Assembly (NCBI GenBank): GCA_945862505.1
Contig: CAMAYJ010000004.1
Span: 581-64,580, forward strand
From: Bifidobacterium breve
GTDB lineage: Bacteria > Actinomycetota > Acidimicrobiia > Acidimicrobiales > Acidimicrobilacustridaceae
Reading direction: 5' to 3'
DNA: 64,000 bases
Below are positions 3,138-49,035 of the stretch, in pieces; the stretch's first letter is position 1, and every line of letters starts with the position of its first letter. The position numbers and the translations under genes were made by a program. The notes beneath the pieces are model-generated. The model was not told the DNA's origin. It was given only the letters and a program-made list of their open reading frames with translations, and did not search any database.

Positions 3138-4516
3138 TCCGACGTCTCCTCGCCTCCTATCTCCTTCTCACCCTCGTCGTACTCATCGCGCTCGAAGTAC
3201 CCCTCGCCCTGGGGTACCGCGATCACCAAATGGATCAGTTGACATCAGGCATTGAACGAGATGCATTCGTGCTGTCGTCCTACCTTTCCGATTCACTCTC
3301 CGGCGGAACGCCAGTTGACCTCACTACGGTCGTCACCAACTACACAGCATCGACAGGCGGCAGAGTCGTCATTGTCAACTCGACCGGCGATGTCCTCGCC
3401 GATTCCGAACCCGCCTCAGCAGGAAAACGAAACTTTCTGTCACGACCCGAAATTGCCGATGCACTCGATCGAGAGATTGCGACGGGAACTCGTTATTCAA
3501 CGACGCTAGGAACGGGTCTTGTGTATGTGGCCATTCCAATTTCGATCGGAGATCAGGTCTTCGGTGCACTTCGTGTGAGTTATTCAACCGATCAGGTCGA
3601 TGCCGAAGTCCGTCGCTACTGGGTCGTACTTCTCGGCGCCGGACTCGTCACCCTGATTCTTGCTGCAGCACTCGGAGTACTCCTCGCCCGATGGGTGACC
3701 CGTCCCATTGCCAAGTTGCGCGATGCCGCGACTCGGATAGGCGACGGCGAACTTTCTGCACGCGCCGAGATCGAACGCGGACCTCCCGAAATCAAAGACC
3801 TCGCGGCCGCATTCAATGCAACCGCAGTCCGTTTGGAGGAACTCGTCACCGCACAAGAACAGTTCGTTGCCGACGCATCCCATCAACTTCGAACGCCCTT
3901 GACTGCGTTACGCCTTCGCCTCGAAATGTTGGAAATCGATTCCAACGACGGCAATCGTGACGACATTGAGGGCGCCCGCAAAGAAGTACATCGAATGTCC
4001 AGAATGGTTGACGGACTCTTGGCGCTCGCAAGGGCCGAACGCACGCTGGGGGCACGTCCAGGACGCCTTGAACTCGACAAGGCGCTGCAGGAACGAGCCG
4101 CAGCGTGGCAGCCCGTTGCCGAAGAGCGAGACGTCTCCATCGTCGCTCGTGGCGGAGGGTTCAAAGCGCGCTGCACCTCGGACATGCTGAGCCAAGTTCT
4201 TGACAACCTCATCGCAAATGCCCTTGAAGTTGCTCCCGCCAATTCGGTGCTCACACTGCACGCAACCGCCGAGGATTCTTCTTCGGGATCAATCATTGCC
4301 ATTCACGTCGTTGATCAAGGTCCGGGCCTCACTGACGAACAGCGCGAGCGGGCTTTTGACCGTTTCTGGCGAGCCACCAATGAACGCGGTGAATTGGGAG
4401 GAACTGGCCTCGGACTCGCCATCGTTCAGAAACTGGTGGAATCTGAAGGAGGTCGAGCGGAACTTCGGGCCGCTGAAGGCGGCGGACTCGATGCCATACT
4501 CCTTTTCGGCAACTGA
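3134..4516 (+). CDS. Sensor histidine kinase (HAMP-HisKA-HATPase)
   Basis: Two TM segments, HAMP, ADASHQLRTPL, NLIANA, DQGPG and GTGLGLAIV. GTGA overlap with the regulator. Confidence 0.95.
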   Translation: MIRRLLASYLLLTLVVLIALEVPLALGYRDHQMDQLTSGIERDAFVLSSYLSDSLSGGTPVDLTTVVTNYTASTGGRVVIVNSTGDVLADSEPASAGKRNFLSRPEIADALDREIATGTRYSTTLGTGLVYVAIPISIGDQVFGALRVSYSTDQVDAEVRRYWVVLLGAGLVTLILAAALGVLLARWVTRPIAKLRDAATRIGDGELSARAEIERGPPEIKDLAAAFNATAVRLEELVTAQEQFVADASHQLRTPLTALRLRLEMLEIDSNDGNRDDIEGARKEVHRMSRMVDGLLALARAERTLGARPGRLELDKALQERAAAWQPVAEERDVSIVARGGGFKARCTSDMLSQVLDNLIANALEVAPANSVLTLHATAEDSSSGSIIAIHVVDQGPGLTDEQRERAFDRFWRATNERGELGGTGLGLAIVQKLVESEGGRAELRAAEGGGLDAILLFGN

Positions 4517-21410: not shown

Positions 21411-21607
21411 TGCGGAAGAGATACGGCTGAAGCCCACGGGGTGCGGTTACTCGGTTCTTTTTCTGGTCTGATTTCAGGTCTGCCACAGACGCCTACGTGT
21501 GCCGGTCTATGGGTGCGAGACCCGACCGGACCACGGACCAAGGCCGCCGACCGAACCGAGCCCCACCTCCCGTAATCCGACGACGGTCTGTGATGGAGCA
21601 ATCCCCC

Positions 21608-21715
21608 CGAAGCAGGCAGTCCGGCTCGTGGCCGCCCGGAGAATCTCCCCAGAGGCCACCTACGGTTGCGGGTCAGCGCCGGAATCAGACCGGCTTCCCC
21701 TGCTGCGGTGGGTCA
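21608..21715 (-). ncRNA. Cobalamin riboswitch (short type)
   Basis: The minus strand reads GCAGGGGAAGCCGGTCTGATTCCGGCGCTGACCCGCAACCGTAGG...GAGCCGGACTGCCTGC, matching the B12-box core (GGGAA, CCGG/CCGG T-loop stem, GCAACyGT, GAGCC). It lies upstream of an ECF importer. Confidence 0.92.
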
Positions 21716-21817
21716 AGTTGTAGTGACACCCCACCACATGGGGTGGTCCCCGTCAATCACCGAGAGCGATACTCGCCCGACCGGCGGTTTCGCGCCCATG
21801 AGTCCTATCCTCAACGC

Positions 21818-42704: not shown

Positions 42705-42966
42705 CGCCACCGTCACGGGCAGCGGCGGCGCGCACGACGGTGCGGATCGACTGCGCAACACGACCGCGCTTGCCGATGACGCGACCCATGTCGCCAGGAC
42801 CAACGCGCACGTTGAGTACAGACTTACGGCCGCGAGAGTCGAGTTCGATTTCGACGGCGGAAGGATCCTCGACGAGTTGCTGAACGACGTAGGTCAACAC
42901 AGCCTTGGCTGTGCTGTAGTCGGGAGTTTCTTCCGACGCGTCCACGGTTTCGGCGACGTCGCTCAC
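42679..42966 (-). CDS. khpA: KH domain RNA-binding protein
   Basis: [19 protein letters not shown]. Lies between rpsP and rimM, with a GTGA overlap. Confidence 0.93.
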
Positions 42967-43226
42967 GATGCTGCGCCGGTGAACTGCTCCCAAGCGCCAG
43001 AGATCTTCAGAAGCTTCTCGACAACTTCAGTGGGCTGCGCGCCCTTCTGAAGCCAAGCAACGGCCTTGTCATTGTCGATGGTGATCTCAGATGGCTCGGT
43101 ACGAGGGTTGTAGTGACCCACGATTTCGATAAAACGGCCATTGCGCGGCGAGCGCGCATCGGCGGCAACGACGCGGTACGTCGGCTGCTTGGTCTTTCCC
43201 ATCCGCATGAGGCGGAGCTTCACCAC
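42963..43226 (-). CDS. rpsP: 30S ribosomal protein S16
   Basis: [28 protein letters not shown] and WLQKGAQPT. Confidence 0.97.
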
Positions 43227-43349
43227 GAGGTTTCTCTCTTCTGCTGGTCGTGCAAGAACGGAACTGCGAACGTTTTCGGCCGAACCCATCGGGACGGCTG
43301 AGCGGCCTTCAATCGTGGCCCGCAATGCCGTCGCGGGCAAGTTGAGAAC

Positions 43350-44852
43350 TCAGCCGAGGCCGAAGGGGTCACTTTCGGGACCGCCAGGAAGGCCGGGAAG
43401 ACGTAATCCGCCGCCGGGCTTCGACCCTCCTAAATCAGCCTCAAAATCCGGCAATCGCAAAGGGGCCTTGCCCTTCGGGGCGACTCGACCGGCCCCAGTG
43501 GAGCGGCCACCCGGCCCCTTGGCTTTGCCTTTGGCGACTTTGCGCCGCGACTTGGTGAGCCGCTTGGTTCCGGCCCCGCCCATGCGCTTCATCATCTTCG
43601 ACATCTCTTTGAACTGTTTGATGAGCTCGCCCACCCGAGCTGGTTCCGTGCCCGAGCCAGTCGCGATTCGGACTCGACGAGACTGATCGATGAGATCGGG
43701 ATCGACCCGTTCGGCCGGGGTCATCGAGCGAATGATGGCTTCGACTCGCGCAATTTCACGGTCGTCGATCTGTGCGTTCTTCACCTCTTTGGGGATACCC
43801 GGCATCATGCCGAGCACTCCCGAAAGCGGACCCATCTTTTTCAACTGCTGCATCTGATCGAGAAAATCTTCGAGGGTGAATTCACCTTCAAGTAGGCGTG
43901 TCGCCGCAGCTTCTGCTTGATCCTTTTCGTAAACCTCTTCGGCCTTTTCAATGAGCGTGAGCATGTCGCCCATACCAAGAATGCGACCGGCCAGACGATC
44001 TGGATGAAACAGGTCGAAGTCACGGAGTTTTTCACCAGTCGACGTGAACGCGATCGGACGACCAACAACTTCCTTAACGCTGAGTGCTGCACCACCGCGC
44101 GCGTCACCATCGAGTTTGGTGAGAATGACGCCATCGAGTTCGAGAGTTGCGTGAAATGCTTCGGCGGTGTTGACCGCGTCTTGACCGGTCATCGCGTCAA
44201 TGACAAGGAACGTGTAATCGGGATCGACCGCTTCTGAGATGCGACGGACCTCGTCCATCAAATCTGCATCAATCGCGAGACGACCAGCAGTATCAACGAT
44301 CACAACGTCACGACCGGTCTTACGCGCTTCAGTCAGCGCGCTTTTCGCAACCTGTACTGGATCGGTGTCCTCGGAGAAAACGGGAACTTCGATCTGGCGT
44401 CCGAGCGTGCGCAACTGCTCTACCGCCGCTGGACGTTGAAGATCGGCACCAACAAGAAGTGGGTGACGCCCTTGACTTTTGAACCATCGAGCCAACTTCG
44501 CCGAGTTGGTTGTCTTACCCGAGCCCTGCAAACCCGCCATGAGAACAACGGTCGGGGGCTTCGAGTTATAGGTAATGCGAATGGTTTCGCCACCGAGAGT
44601 GGCAGTGAGTTCATCGTTGACGATCTTGACCATCTGTTGGCCAGGATTCAGCGCTTTCGAAACCTCTTCACCAACCGCTCGGTCGCGGATTCGCGCACAG
44701 AAATTCTTGACAACGGTGAAGTTGACGTCGGCTTCGAGAAGAGCAAGGCGAATCTCGCGCAGCGCTTCATCGACGTCGGCTTCGGAGAGTTTGCCTTTGC
44801 CCTTCAGTTTCCCGAGGACAGACTCAAACCTGTCTGAAAGTGACTCGAACAT
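43350..44852 (-). CDS. ffh: Signal recognition particle protein
   Basis: ALLEADV, GLQGSGKTT, DTAGR, TKLDGDARGG and FHPDRLAGRILGMGD, followed by the M domain. Confidence 0.97.
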   Translation of the reverse strand: MFESLSDRFESVLGKLKGKGKLSEADVDEALREIRLALLEADVNFTVVKNFCARIRDRAVGEEVSKALNPGQQMVKIVNDELTATLGGETIRITYNSKPPTVVLMAGLQGSGKTTNSAKLARWFKSQGRHPLLVGADLQRPAAVEQLRTLGRQIEVPVFSEDTDPVQVAKSALTEARKTGRDVVIVDTAGRLAIDADLMDEVRRISEAVDPDYTFLVIDAMTGQDAVNTAEAFHATLELDGVILTKLDGDARGGAALSVKEVVGRPIAFTSTGEKLRDFDLFHPDRLAGRILGMGDMLTLIEKAEEVYEKDQAEAAATRLLEGEFTLEDFLDQMQQLKKMGPLSGVLGMMPGIPKEVKNAQIDDREIARVEAIIRSMTPAERVDPDLIDQSRRVRIATGSGTEPARVGELIKQFKEMSKMMKRMGGAGTKRLTKSRRKVAKGKAKGPGGRSTGAGRVAPKGKAPLRLPDFEADLGGSKPGGGLRLPGLPGGPESDPFGLG

Positions 44853-45154
44853 CAGGCTGCGACCCCGTTGGTTGCGCCATCAAACACGAAGTCAGTCTCA
44901 TGGTCATGGTCATGATTATGCGACATCAGTCCGATCTGACGACCGATGACAATGCCAATCACCACTCCAATGGTGACTGCGCCAACGATTTTCCAGCCGA
45001 GGGCACGTGTGACCGCCGCGCTTCCCTTCACCGGCAGCGCTCCGACTTTGAACCCAGCCCGAAAGGTAAGCCCCAGTGACGCAATAAGCACCTTTACGGG
45101 GAGGACGATTGCTCGCCAGGCAATGTGAACCGGAAATGTTATGAATTTTTTCAT
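44852..45154 (-). CDS. Hypothetical 100-aa membrane protein with a His-rich tail, between ftsY and ffh
   Basis: The ORF exactly fills the gap, with an ATGA overlap on the ftsY stop and a TGATG overlap on the ffh start. Gly-zipper TM segment. Confidence 0.8.
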   Translation of the reverse strand: MKKFITFPVHIAWRAIVLPVKVLIASLGLTFRAGFKVGALPVKGSAAVTRALGWKIVGAVTIGVVIGIVIGRQIGLMSHNHDHDHETDFVFDGATNGVAA

Positions 45155-46296
45155 GCGAACAATGCCTCCACAAATTCATGTGCATCGAATGAAACAAGGT
45201 CTTCGGCGCCTTCGCCAAGTCCGACCAACTTCACCGGAATGCCAAGTTGATCGTGAATTGCAATGACGATCCCACCCTTAGCTGATCCATCAAGTTTGGT
45301 GAGCACCACGCCAGTGAGTTCAACCGCTTCAGTGAATTGCTTTGCCTGGACCAGACCGTTCTGGCCAGTGGTCGCGTCGATCACAAGAAGAACTTCGGTG
45401 ACAGTCCCATCGCCCTTATCGGCAACACGACGTACCTTGCTCAGCTCTTCCATGAGATTCACATTGTTATGAAGGCGTCCAGCAGTGTCGGCAAGAACGA
45501 GGTCGATAGTGCGGGCGCTTGCGGCTTCGACGCCGTCGAAAATCACCGCACTTGGGTCGCCGCCCTCGTTCCCCCGAACAAATTCGGCTCCTGCGCGTTC
45601 AGCCCACATTCCAAGTTGTTCTGCCGCCGCGGCACGGAACGTATCGCCAGCCGCCATCAGAACAGTTCGACCTTCTCGTACCTGGCGGACACCAATCTTT
45701 CCGATTGTGGTCGTCTTTCCAACCCCATTAACGCCCACAAAAAGCCACACAGTTGGGCCGGAATCACTCGACAGTTTGAGTTCGCGATCAAAGCCACTCA
45801 ATCGATTGGCCATCTCAGCTTTGAGCGCGCCTAGAAGTTCCTCGCCATTCGAAAGTCCATCGACTTTCACTCGCGCGCGTAGGTGATCGAGAAGTTCTTG
45901 AGTCGATCCAACACCGACATCGGCGAGGATGAGCGCTTCTTCGAGTTCATCCCACGTCTCGGCATCGATCTTCGAGCGACCTGCGATCGAACCCATTGCG
46001 CCCGACAACGCAGCACGGGCTTTTCCGAGACGATCGCGGAAACGAGGACGTTCAGCAACCTCTTCGACGACAACGTCATCGACCGGAACATGGGTCGCAA
46101 GATCAGCAGCGACCTCGGCTTCGACCAGTGCCGCACGCTCAACTTCTTCAGGGGGAACAACGCGGTCGTCGACCAGGGTGCGGCGCTTTGACGGCGGTTC
46201 CAGAGACCCTCGGCGATTCCGAGGGGCAATGAATCCGAGTCCGACAATCAGGCCAAGGACGATGACGACGGCAACGATGATGAGAATCACAGTCAT
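45151..46296 (-). CDS. ftsY: SRP receptor FtsY
   Basis: N-terminal TM, GVNGVGKTTT, DTFRAAA, DTAGRLH and TKLDGSAKGG. Confidence 0.97.
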   Translation of the reverse strand: MTVILIIVAVVIVLGLIVGLGFIAPRNRRGSLEPPSKRRTLVDDRVVPPEEVERAALVEAEVAADLATHVPVDDVVVEEVAERPRFRDRLGKARAALSGAMGSIAGRSKIDAETWDELEEALILADVGVGSTQELLDHLRARVKVDGLSNGEELLGALKAEMANRLSGFDRELKLSSDSGPTVWLFVGVNGVGKTTTIGKIGVRQVREGRTVLMAAGDTFRAAAAEQLGMWAERAGAEFVRGNEGGDPSAVIFDGVEAASARTIDLVLADTAGRLHNNVNLMEELSKVRRVADKGDGTVTEVLLVIDATTGQNGLVQAKQFTEAVELTGVVLTKLDGSAKGGIVIAIHDQLGIPVKLVGLGEGAEDLVSFDAHEFVEALFA

Positions 46297-46355
46297 GGGC
46301 TAGCAAGTCTAGTGGGCCGCCCTTCGGGCCCATCCGGGCGTTTCGGCACCGCTTG

Positions 46356-47603
46356 TTACTTCAGCGTGCCCAGCGTTACGTCAACATTGAGAACCTTGCC
46401 GTCACGATTGATCTCGACGACAACCTTGTCGCCAGGGCTATAGCCACTGGCCATGCCTCGCAGTTCATCAAAACTGCCCACCTGCACCCCGTCGACAGCA
46501 ACGATGAGGTCGCCCGATTTAATGCCAGCCTTGTCGGCGGCGCCGCCGCTTGTGACGCTCTGGACATATGCACCAGCACTACCCGAAGGCGTCGTACTCG
46601 GACCACTAAGCCCGAGTCCCGCTCGAGCCACGGTCTTGCCTGCAGCAAGTTGGTCCGCAACACGCTTGGCGGTCGAGATCGGAATGGCGAAACCAATACC
46701 CGTGTTCTCACCCGTCTGGCTGTAGATCGAGGAGTTAATGCCCATGATCTCGGCGTTGCGATTTGCTAGCGCACCACCCGAGTTGCCGGGGTTGATGGAA
46801 GCGTCGGTCTGGATCATGTTGATCACGACGCTCTTTGCATTGGGCACCGGTCGGTTCACCGCTGAAACGATGCCCGAGGTCACGGTCTGATCAAGGCCAT
46901 ATGGACTACCAACCGCAACAGCAATCTGCCCAACCTGTGGTTTCTCATTGGCCAACTTCGCCGGCGGAGCTTGAAGACCAGCAGCACGAACAACGGCAAT
47001 GTCAGTGCCAGTATCGGCGCCAAGAACTTGGCCCTTCACTGCGGTGCCGTCCGAATCACGAACGGTAACTGTTTGAGCAGTACCCACAACATGAGCATTG
47101 GTGATGAACAAATCAGTGTCGTAAGCGACGCCCGAACCAACGCCATCACCGGTTTCAATTTGCACAACTGACGGGCTCACCATTGCCGCAACGTAGGCAA
47201 TCGGTTCTGAGCCGGGATCGATGGTGACGGCCGTCGTCGTGACCTGACCGCTCGCATTTGAGCTTCGAACCACAGTTGTCTTGTTGTTGTCGATAAGCGA
47301 TCGAATCCCGAAGCCAAGGCCGAACAGGCCGACAACAACAACGAGAGTAACAACAGCGCGAAGGAACGGATTCGAGCGACGCGGACCAGACGAGTTCGTA
47401 CCGCGATCCGGAGGAGGTGTCGGTGCACCACCCCACGCGTCGGTCACTGGAATCGGCGCGTCCGGAGTCGTCGGCGCGACTGGGGCGGCACTTCCCCACG
47501 ACGGTGGCATCGGCGCGGGCGTCCAACCGCTCGCCGGCACGGGGGGCGCTGGAGGGGACGGAGGCTGAGGGGGCATGGCGGGGGGCTGGTTATCCCAGGT
47601 CAT
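46356..47603 (-). CDS. HtrA/DegP-family serine protease with PDZ domain
   Basis: Pro-rich N-terminus, TM, TNAHVV, DIAV, IQTDASINPGNSGG and a C-terminal PDZ. Confidence 0.93.
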   Translation of the reverse strand: MTWDNQPPAMPPQPPSPPAPPVPASGWTPAPMPPSWGSAAPVAPTTPDAPIPVTDAWGGAPTPPPDRGTNSSGPRRSNPFLRAVVTLVVVVGLFGLGFGIRSLIDNNKTTVVRSSNASGQVTTTAVTIDPGSEPIAYVAAMVSPSVVQIETGDGVGSGVAYDTDLFITNAHVVGTAQTVTVRDSDGTAVKGQVLGADTGTDIAVVRAAGLQAPPAKLANEKPQVGQIAVAVGSPYGLDQTVTSGIVSAVNRPVPNAKSVVINMIQTDASINPGNSGGALANRNAEIMGINSSIYSQTGENTGIGFAIPISTAKRVADQLAAGKTVARAGLGLSGPSTTPSGSAGAYVQSVTSGGAADKAGIKSGDLIVAVDGVQVGSFDELRGMASGYSPGDKVVVEINRDGKVLNVDVTLGTLK

Positions 47604-47680
47604 AGAAATCGGCTCCTACAGCGGGTTCGGAAGAGATCGTACGGACGCCGGGCGGCAAACGTGTGGGAAACGTACCGATG

Positions 47681-47713
47681 GGCAGCGAAAGACGAACGAA
47701 AGTCAAAAAGAAT
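47681..47713 (-). promoter_or_regulatory. Candidate OmpR-type tandem site upstream of htrA
   Basis: Minus strand ATTCTTTTTGA CTTTCGTTCGT CTTTCGCTGCC: an 11-bp-period CTTTCG repeat. Confidence 0.35.
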
Positions 47714-47736
47714 CGTTCGCTTGGGTGCGACCTCCA

Positions 47737-49035
47737 CTAGATAGCTGCGTTGACGGGTGACGGTGTTGAAGGTCGCGTCGGGGCGAGCGCCGGAAGCCAG
47801 AGTGCGAATGCCGAGCCGTGATCGACCTGCGAAACGAGCTTGACCTCGCCTCCATGGGCTTCGGCGATCTGACGAACAATCGTCAAGCCCAGTCCACTGC
47901 GTCCTTGTTCGCGCCCCTCTCGTAAGTCGCCTCGCCAGAAACGCTGGAACACTCGATCTTGGTCAACAAGGTCAATCCCCGGACCCTGATCTTCAATAGC
48001 CATCCACGCCCATGGCCCTTCGAGGCCACCTCGAAGCCGAACTGTGGTGCCTTCGGGTGAATACCGGATGGCATTGGCTAAAAGATTGCCAAGCGCCTGG
48101 CGCAAAGCAAGACGATCGCCCACTACCCACAAATCACCGGGCGCATGATGAACAAGATGAACACCTGCCGCCGTTGCGGGTGCGGTGAATTCTTCAGCGG
48201 CCTCATTGATGAGCAACGCAAGGTCAACTGGATTGCGTTCGAGCGAAAGCGTTCCCTTCCGGGCGTAGACGAGCAAGTCATCGACCAATCGCGCCATGCG
48301 TTCAGACGATCGCTCCACCACTTCGGCTGCGTGTCGTAGTTCCTCAGCACTGGCGTCGGGATCGGCCAAAGTTACTTCGAGATTTGTCCGGATAACGGCC
48401 AGTGGGTTTCGTAATTCATGACTTGCTTCATGGATGAACTGTCGCTGTCCTTCGAACGCTTCGTCGAGACGACCGAGCATGTCGTCGAAGGTGTCTGCCA
48501 ATTGTCGCAGTTCGTCATTCGGCCCGCCAAGATCAATTCGTTGCTTGAGATCGCTCGCTTGAATCTCACGAACCGAGTTTGAGATTTCACCAAGAGGACG
48601 AAGCAATCGCCCACTCACGATCCAACCGACAATCAGACTGAGAAAAAAGAGTGCCAGCAAGGCCCAAAACGAATAGACCCGCAAAGCATCGAGCGCTCGT
48701 TCGTTGACCGCCCGCTGAACCAATTGAGCTTGATCAGGCTGGATGAATGTGATGCCGCCAACTTGAAATGCCATCGCCGAAATCTTTTGATTTTTTAGCG
48801 AATATTCCAGGCCTAAATAGATGCCGCCCACAACGAGTGCAGCCAGCCCGAAGACAAGAATCGACCACACAGCAGTGAGTCGGAAGCGGATCGAACCCAT
48901 CCACGAAGGAAGGCGGCTCGAGGCTCGGTGCGAACGTGAATGCAAACGCGTCCGAACCGTGCTTGTCGAGCGCGTTTGCTCAATCTTGACCTCGAGCGGA
49001 TCGTGCGCTGGCGCTGGAAGGTGCGGGTCAATCAC
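47737..49035 (-). CDS. Sensor histidine kinase (HAMP-HisKA-HATPase)
   Basis: Two TMs with a short external loop, HEASHELRNPL, NLLANA, DQGPG and SGLGLTIV. Confidence 0.94.
   Translation of the reverse strand: MIDPHLPAPAHDPLEVKIEQTRSTSTVRTRLHSRSHRASSRLPSWMGSIRFRLTAVWSILVFGLAALVVGGIYLGLEYSLKNQKISAMAFQVGGITFIQPDQAQLVQRAVNERALDALRVYSFWALLALFFLSLIVGWIVSGRLLRPLGEISNSVREIQASDLKQRIDLGGPNDELRQLADTFDDMLGRLDEAFEGQRQFIHEASHELRNPLAVIRTNLEVTLADPDASAEELRHAAEVVERSSERMARLVDDLLVYARKGTLSLERNPVDLALLINEAAEEFTAPATAAGVHLVHHAPGDLWVVGDRLALRQALGNLLANAIRYSPEGTTVRLRGGLEGPWAWMAIEDQGPGIDLVDQDRVFQRFWRGDLREGREQGRSGLGLTIVRQIAEAHGGEVKLVSQVDHGSAFALWLPALAPTRPSTPSPVNAAI

Follow-up and report, generated by a model that had tools for sequence, protein, structure and literature searches.

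Targeting by the bacterial signal recognition particle (SRP) is usually described as the work of Ffh, 4.5S RNA and FtsY. Among the systems compared here, YlxM (UPF0122, PF04297) of the Firmicutes is the sole extra SRP protein encoded in the operon; it is a binding partner of Ffh and of the SRP RNA and a modulator of GTP hydrolysis (PMC8546722), and because it is encoded between ftsY and ffh, that slot can hold an SRP accessory factor. Here we analyze the occupant of the same slot in a 64,000-nucleotide stretch of DNA (the window) from contig CAMAYJ010000004.1 of assembly GCA_945862505.1, which belongs to the Acidimicrobiia. It is a small open reading frame (ORF) at 44852..45154 on the minus strand, which we call X, complete from its ATG start to a TGA stop at 44854-44852, and its 100-aa product is MKKFITFPVHIAWRAIVLPVKVLIASLGLTFRAGFKVGALPVKGSAAVTRALGWKIVGAVTIGVVIGIVIGRQIGLMSHNHDHDHETDFVFDGATNGVAA. 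Upstream lies ftsY, encoding the SRP receptor (45151..46296, minus strand; Pfam SRP54_N and SRP54, E 4.5e-71), and downstream lies the SRP54 homolog ffh (43350..44852, minus strand; Pfam SRP54_N, SRP54 and SRP_SPB). The gene order, ftsY-X-ffh-rpsP-KH-rimM-trmD, is similar to that around YlxM, but YlxM is a soluble protein of helix-turn-helix type (~110 aa), whereas X is a membrane protein with a clear transmembrane (TM) segment and no sequence similarity to it. The interval between ftsY and ffh holds this single 303-nt ORF and therefore not an amt-glnB-glnD insert. An original prediction, made from the letters of the window, had set X apart from both arrangements, which agrees with the single ORF and with the absence of any Pfam match, and had described an ORF overlapping both neighbors with P-V-[HK] repeats, a Gly-zipper TM segment and a SHNHDHDHE tail. 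All of these are present: the ATG of X (45154-45152) overlaps the ftsY stop (45153-45151) as ATGA, its own TGA shares one base with the ffh start (44852-44850) as TGATG, both overlaps recur in relatives, and the protein carries FPVHI at residues 7-11, LPVKV at 18-22, LPVKG at 40-44, G63xxxG67xxxG71 and SHNHDHDHE at 78-86.

The closest described relative of X is a 'BON domain-containing protein' of ~160-170 aa (e.g., P0145 of Rhabdothermincola sediminis), which has a homologous N-terminal module and occupies the same slot between ftsY and ffh in the same wider neighborhood. X differs from it in lacking both a 4-residue AP-x-S YtxH insertion and the BON domain (PF04972), in carrying a 22-residue His/Asp-rich tail instead, and in overlapping ftsY and ffh with its start and stop, where short gaps are common at BON-type loci. 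YtxH-like proteins (PF12732; typified by the Bacillus subtilis general stress protein YtxH) resemble X in being small and in having a basic residue after a Gly-rich TM helix. Relatives of X match YtxH below threshold over the TM helix, whereas the window protein and its 21 close homologs do not; X has in addition a conserved N-terminal extension of ~50 residues, and it lacks the APxSGxxxR motif (reading ..GIVIGRQIG.. instead) and the C-terminal amphipathic region. A literature search on YtxH showed it to be essentially uncharacterized, with no known SRP link, and the searches on YtxH, on BON with FtsY or SRP, and on YlxM in Actinobacteria returned no account of X or of an ftsY-X-ffh arrangement in Acidimicrobiia.

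Pfam (E <= 1) and NCBIfam scans of the X protein gave no match, and a Pfam scan of all 21 family members at E <= 10 gave noise only. An exhaustive search of 1.84e9 representative proteins with a hidden Markov model profile of the family yielded only 26 matches, the weakest of which carry ..GLLxAPxSGRxLRxRL.. (a YtxH-like APxSGRxLR) directly after the TM helix and consistently match Pfam YtxH below threshold, some of them together with a BON or peptidoglycan-binding domain; a profile that included YtxH-like members retrieved further such proteins. By hhalign, the X family (A1) aligns with the YtxH-like/BON group at 99% probability (E 2.5e-18) over 70 columns, the whole of the membrane module. 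Distant orthologs, as tabulated individually, score 15-28 bits for YtxH against a gathering threshold of 37.5. In group A3 all 14 members match YtxH at E <= 0.01 (best 1.3e-07), and 11 of 14 match BON at E <= 0.01, P0099 passing the Pfam gathering threshold (32.7 vs 27 bits). The BON-type profile gathered 943 clusters, the named ones being 'BON domain-containing protein' of Acidimicrobiales and of Rhabdothermincola sediminis (NCBI). Common to the family are a first helix that is basic and very hydrophobic, with Pro and Lys conserved and (T)FR(A)G at its end, a hinge between the helices, G-x-L-P-V-[KR]-G, and a second helix that is a Gly-zipper TM segment of YtxH type, and X itself has the P19/K21 helix, (T)FR(A)G, G38-x-x-P41, R50-x-x-G53 and the G63/G67 zipper. 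What defines the family is its N-terminal membrane module of ~75 residues, for which Pfam has no entry, and X is a reduced, BON-less, His/Asp-tailed ortholog of an already annotated BON-domain family. The original prediction of an unknown, lineage-specific protein is borne out as regards its restriction to one lineage and to the ftsY-ffh slot; X is not an isolated unknown, given the hhalign result. All sources that name an organism are Acidimicrobiia/Acidimicrobiales, barring obvious mislabels of metagenome-assembled genomes (MAGs). Four loci (L001, L007, L009 and L013) are publicly labeled 'Bifidobacterium breve', 'uncultured Bifidobacterium sp.' or 'Candidatus Microthrix'; in FtsY, Ffh and RpsP they share 72-100% identity with this Acidimicrobiia window, and the labels are probably taxonomic errors.

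X is a genuine, conserved, lineage-restricted membrane protein gene. A search of 5.8e9 proteins found 20 homologous clusters of 85-118 aa, in which T30-F-R-x-G34 (TFRAG), G38, P41-V42, G44, R50-A51, G53-W-K55 and G63/G67/G71-R72 are invariant and the N-terminus MK(K)xxTFP is conserved among relatives. Over residues 1-78 the ratio of nonsynonymous to synonymous substitution rates (dN/dS; pairwise Nei-Gojobori) ranges over 0.07-0.30 among the pairs with unsaturated dS (12 of 15), so that the selection analysis proposed with the original prediction points to purifying selection. Its context is conserved as well: in 25 of 25 contexts X stands directly after ftsY, and no copy was seen elsewhere. 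Fourteen of these contexts come from a scan of one genome per species, which returned 14 loci, all from Acidimicrobiia/Acidimicrobiales MAGs, a few wrongly labeled. In each of the 14 the order is htrA-ftsY-X-ffh-rpsP and the ORF exactly fills the gap between ftsY and ffh; compared to the window, FtsY and Ffh are 65-99% identical and X is 41-95% identical. The other 11 are context look-ups (P0038, P0099, P0075, P0093, P0048, P0049, P0145, P0140, P0173, P0179 and P0127), all 11 of which place X directly 3' of ftsY and upstream of ffh-rpsP-KH-rimM-trmD-rplS. Ffh is 68% identical to that of the window in the BON-type loci compared (L015, L018 and L021).

The arrangement of the three genes also points to joint expression. 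In metatranscriptomes of river, freshwater and marine origin, contigs extend across both the X-ffh junction (44785-45046) and the ftsY-X junction (45018-45229), which shows, barring DNA carry-over, that ftsY-X-ffh is transcribed as one message; the only indels in these contigs are 6-nt in-frame insertions in a His-Asp (HD) repeat of the tail. A scan of 42800-47800 found no terminator on the coding (minus) strand within the ftsY-X-ffh block, and no promoter or terminator signal in that interval exceeded shuffled expectation. X is preceded by a GGAGG Shine-Dalgarno (SD) sequence (45165..45169, minus strand), 10 nt 5' of its ATG and within the final codons of ftsY (..V-E-A-L-F-A*), and the same GGAGG is found at the ftsY-X junctions of L001-L013. 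An SD-like GGGG for ffh (44863..44866, minus strand) lies 10 nt 5' of the ffh ATG, within the final codons of X; most relatives and the RNA-derived contigs have GAGG at this place (variant 44865 C>T on the plus strand). The terminal E/G-V-A-A of X is coded by GAGGTCGCAGCC (GGGG... in the window), and because these codons form the SD-like element before the ffh start, their conservation is probably at the nucleotide level. The ATGA and TGATG overlaps are present in the window, L001-L014, L020 and L025, except that the stop of L012 makes an 8-nt overlap. Since its start and stop overlap ftsY and ffh, X is probably translationally coupled to both, and made in a set ratio with them, in the window's clade and in a clade of relatives with acidic tails.

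The conserved membrane module, residues 1-78 (44921..45154, minus strand), was delimited by alignment invariants, dN/dS, AlphaFold2 (AF2) and hhalign. It comprises a first helix (~6-38), which is hydrophobic, contains P19 and K21 and ends in TFRAG; a hinge, A39-L-P41; and a second helix (~42-81), which holds RALGWK and the hydrophobic core of the Gly zipper. This core, residues 56-71 (44942..44989, minus strand; IVGAVTIGVVIGIVIG), is flanked by K55 and R72, and its G63, G67 and G71 are conserved. With a Kyte-Doolittle (KD) window of 19 residues there is a clear TM peak of 2.21 at residues 52-70 and a borderline first segment of 1.82 at residues 11-29. The AF2 model, built on a 95-sequence alignment (predicted local distance difference test, pLDDT, 68.9), has two long helices at 6-38 and 42-81 joined by the A39-L-P41 hinge and a disordered tail, with pLDDT <50 from residue 88 onward. 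Neither a Foldseek search of this model nor a search with the family sequence profile returned a match in the PDB. Net charge runs from +3 (residues 1-14), +1 (15-31) and +5 (32-55) through 0 (56-71) to -4 (72-100), i.e., +9 before the clear TM segment and -4 after it; because of the positive-inside rule, this distribution favors a topology with the N-terminus in, a single span and the tail out, helix 1 being predicted to lie at the cytoplasmic interface. The [FL]-P-V-[HKR] motif may recur with an 11-residue period (positions 7, 18, 29 as LTFR, and 40), but since the hydrophobic moments are modest (0.2-0.39) we do not claim an apolipoprotein-like amphipathic repeat.

Behind this module the protein changes freely. 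In the window the tail, residues 79-100 (44855..44920, minus strand; HNHDHDHETDFVFDGATNGVAA), is acidic, His-rich and predicted to be disordered, and QIGLMSHNHDHDHETDFVFDGATNGVAA is the C-terminal tryptic peptide of X. Its H-D repeats are encoded by a hexanucleotide tandem repeat detected by TRF, TCATGG x2.8 on the plus strand (CAT-GAC on the coding strand), at 44898..44914. The number of HD units varies inside a single 90%-identity cluster, and metatranscriptome runs X25 and X27 have 6-nt insertions (TCATGA or TCCTGA) at 44909; such copy-number variation among closely related populations is consistent with replication slippage. Tails of the His/Asp kind, whose 3-13 His mostly alternate with Asp, are found in the window's clade and in several branches related to it. 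At loci whose Ffh is ~82-85% identical, the first ~75 residues are retained and are followed by a tail of 75-134 aa with 20-42 Asp/Glu and no His. These acidic tails carry motifs of their own, LVEDTIEVVETPDGEVVTETVTVTE and EIEAEIDQALGxTGGELGVD, which hint at a small folded or binding element in the long-tail relatives. The long acidic tails of relatives such as L010 (5230-5588) and P0054-P0063 have one or two copies of V-E-D-T-I-E-V-[IV]-[DE]-T-P-D-G-x-V-V, and the second of the above motifs is their conserved C-terminal element. Elsewhere the tail is a BON domain. Rhabdothermincola salaria (acidic tail) and R. sediminis (BON) both have X in the same slot, in the order MoxR, response regulator, sensor kinase, HtrA, FtsY, X, Ffh. 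Nothing suggests that the acidic tail arose from BON by a frameshift: when R. salaria was compared to R. sediminis by tblastx and blastn, similarity was confined to the N-terminal module, with no match in an alternative frame. For the tail, dN/dS reaches 0.13-0.65 among short-tailed members and ~0.9 in the acidic clade, where alignment uncertainty inflates the value, and it exceeds core dN/dS in most pairs where both are computable. Because different tail types occupy the same slot, those of R. salaria and R. sediminis included, the membrane module is the conserved core and the tail is swappable, as a BON domain, a long acidic segment or a short His/Asp segment.

What, then, does the module do? 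We favor, tentatively and at a little under even confidence, the view that its place of action is the membrane around FtsY, where it would assist or tether the SRP receptor or the insertion site. The window's FtsY has a TM anchor of its own at the N-terminus (46207-46296, minus strand; MTVILIIVAVVIVLGLIVGLGFIAPRNRRG), followed by LEPP and an acidic linker, and at all related loci FtsY is likewise TM-anchored, the anchor being followed by Arg-rich and acidic stretches and its sequence varying; this matches the report that Streptomyces FtsY is an integral membrane protein (PMC5853079). X would sit in the membrane next to this anchored receptor and would serve both receptor and insertion site, with contact made through the conserved membrane module; the tail would act at the surface as a lineage-specific module for binding lipids, cations or metals, and coupled translation would hold the amounts of X, FtsY and Ffh in a set proportion. 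It is solely from gene order and translational coupling that we infer a link between X and SRP, and several observations weigh against the proposal. Contact of X with FtsY, Ffh, SecYEG or YidC would be guilt by association only, and the recognizable homology, YtxH-like and BON, is connected in the literature with stress and membrane binding, not with targeting. Confidence in the AF2 model is moderate only (pLDDT 68.9), and the borderline hydrophobicity of helix 1 (KD 1.82) weakens the topology call. The strongly basic stretch that follows the TM segment in BON-type members would suggest, by analogy with canonical YtxH, a cytoplasmic C-terminus, and BON proteins of S. lividans are annotated as facing the cytoplasm (PMC5853079). 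BON-type loci often have gaps of 9-57 nt and no overlap, so tight coupling to ffh is not universal, and in the P0099 lineage an opposite-strand HlyIII gene separates X from ffh, with X still adjoining ftsY. The RNA contigs, finally, may include DNA carry-over and are evidence of transcription, not of translation.

A bolder version, which we regard as rather doubtful, would make ftsY-X-ffh a three-gene SRP module of the Acidimicrobiales, with X as a two-helix membrane subunit that pairs with TM-anchored FtsY, either as a counterpart of SR-beta in role or as a membrane-bound regulator in the manner of YlxM, and with its exchangeable tail adapting the targeting site to lipid or ionic conditions. 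SR-beta is the membrane anchor of the alpha subunit of the eukaryotic SRP receptor, as set out in two reports (PMC2064314, PMC2780400). The analogy is of role only, in that X would partner the FtsY/SR-alpha homolog as an integral membrane protein: SR-beta belongs to the Arf-like GTPases and has its TM anchor at the N-terminus, whereas X has no GTPase domain by Pfam and just a 22-residue tail past its module, and FtsY at these loci is already TM-anchored itself. If X does serve the receptor, it would be a second slot protein, unrelated to YlxM and embedded in the membrane, across an actinobacterial order, and lineage-specific SRP receptor subunits may be commoner than thought. The family offers a concrete candidate for a receptor accessory that can be tested, and the question should be experimentally approachable since cultured Rhabdothermincola species carry two of the tail variants.

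Alternatively, one could envision X as a passenger: a YtxH-like/BON envelope or stress protein of OsmY type, protecting or sensing the membrane or the envelope surface, that is constitutively co-expressed with ftsY and ffh and does not interact with SRP. This is the most serious competitor, if on the whole unlikely. The only recognizable similarities of the family are to YtxH and BON, the latter described as putatively membrane-binding (PMC5853079); many loci have, directly upstream, genes for a response regulator, a sensor kinase and an HtrA-type protease; and the HlyIII insertion shows that the link between X and ffh can be broken. The free exchange of the tail between lineages cuts both ways. 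The tail would be the expected working part of such a protein; but X has stayed directly after ftsY in 25 of 25 contexts, down to an Ffh identity of 68%, even though the supposed working domain has been swapped or lost, and selection is strongest on the membrane module, not on the tail. Nor was a copy of X seen at any other genomic position. Even if X is a passenger, the family shows a conserved membrane module that has swapped its C-terminal part within one genus.

It is improbable, in our judgment, that X matters chiefly in cis, as a coupling or sensor ORF that controls Ffh synthesis while the mature protein is of little importance. Nascent X, itself dependent on SRP, might tether the ftsY-X-ffh mRNA to the membrane or tie ffh translation to SRP capacity. 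The ATGA and TGATG overlaps would suit such a device, as would the ffh SD inside the final codons of X, where the conserved C-terminal E-V-A-A is encoded. The strong TM segment makes the product a likely SRP client, and SRP is known to act on small membrane proteins (PMC7549839). A signal of this sort would need little more than generic hydrophobicity, a need exceeded by the invariant TFRAG, P41-V, G44, R50, G53-W-K and Gly zipper and by the low dN/dS; moreover, the BON-type orthologs are set off by intergenic gaps and contain a folded domain, and in one lineage ffh is preceded by an inserted gene.

Less probable still is the function put forward in the original prediction, a metal-responsive SRP modulator in which Ni or Zn binding by the His/Asp tail would tune the Ffh and FtsY GTPases. 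Runs of His and Asp are plausible metal ligands, tails with 3-13 His recur in the window's clade and several related branches, and among the Pfam matches, all at noise level, are the His-rich metal proteins ZrgA, CbtB and Metal_resist. CbtB, a putative cobalt transporter subunit, does share with X one TM helix and a His-rich C-terminal tail, but the match is at noise level (E ~1, one member) and the genomic context is unrelated. As a core function, metal sensing does not survive the comparison with relatives: the tail is missing from most of the family, where acidic tails without a single His or a BON domain stand in its place, the HD units, which arise from a hexamer repeat, differ in number among members of a 90% cluster, and constraint on the tail is relaxed, its dN/dS being above that of the core in most computable pairs. 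Should the tail lie outside the cell, which the charge bias favors, it could not reach cytoplasmic GTPases at all. The HD tail may well bind metal in the window's clade. That X is a chance frame in a GC-rich spacer can be dismissed: many overlapping chance ORFs of 50-170 aa do occur on both strands of the region, but purifying selection acts in the frame of X, its start, SD and length class are conserved, it fills the gap exactly at every locus, and its homologs reach to folded BON-domain proteins.

Several features of the surrounding genes were noted along the way. The GC content of X is like that of its neighbors, and composition gives no sign of foreign DNA. We considered whether the FtsY anchor (..GFIAPRNRRG) might be YtxH-like or a duplicate of the X TM segment and rejected this; AP-R occurs in the window's clade only, and other loci read ..LVSSRRR... 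At its C-terminus (43350-43600, minus strand) Ffh has a tail of ~80 residues past the M domain that is rich in Lys, Arg, Gly and Pro (..TKRLTKSRRKVAKGKAKGPGGRSTGAGRVAPKGKAPLRLP..GLPGGPESDPFGLG), and this basic tail could contact the acidic tail of the adjacent X protein. The inserted HlyIII gene, which disrupts the operon in one abundant BON-type lineage, lies at 5509-6186 in L018 and at 2172-2849 in L019 (225-aa product); the call in L029, at 4005-4214, is a fragment of 69 aa. Directly upstream of ftsY in the window (46356-49035, minus strand) are an HtrA-type Trypsin-PDZ protease with a Pro-rich N-terminus and then a HAMP-HisKA sensor kinase; in L020, L026 and L028 a response regulator additionally precedes the kinase. 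Such a MoxR/response regulator-sensor kinase-HtrA block, similar to envelope-stress modules, is conserved beside ftsY at many loci of the Acidimicrobiales. For rpsP, the longest ORF call (42963-43340, minus strand; 125 aa, TTG start) probably overshoots, and from the position of the S16 consensus start the true start is likely ~35 codons downstream of the called TTG. The Rfam scan of the window found no SRP RNA gene; its sole match at the gathering level is a cobalamin riboswitch (RF00174, 38.7 bits) at 21594-21756 on the minus strand.

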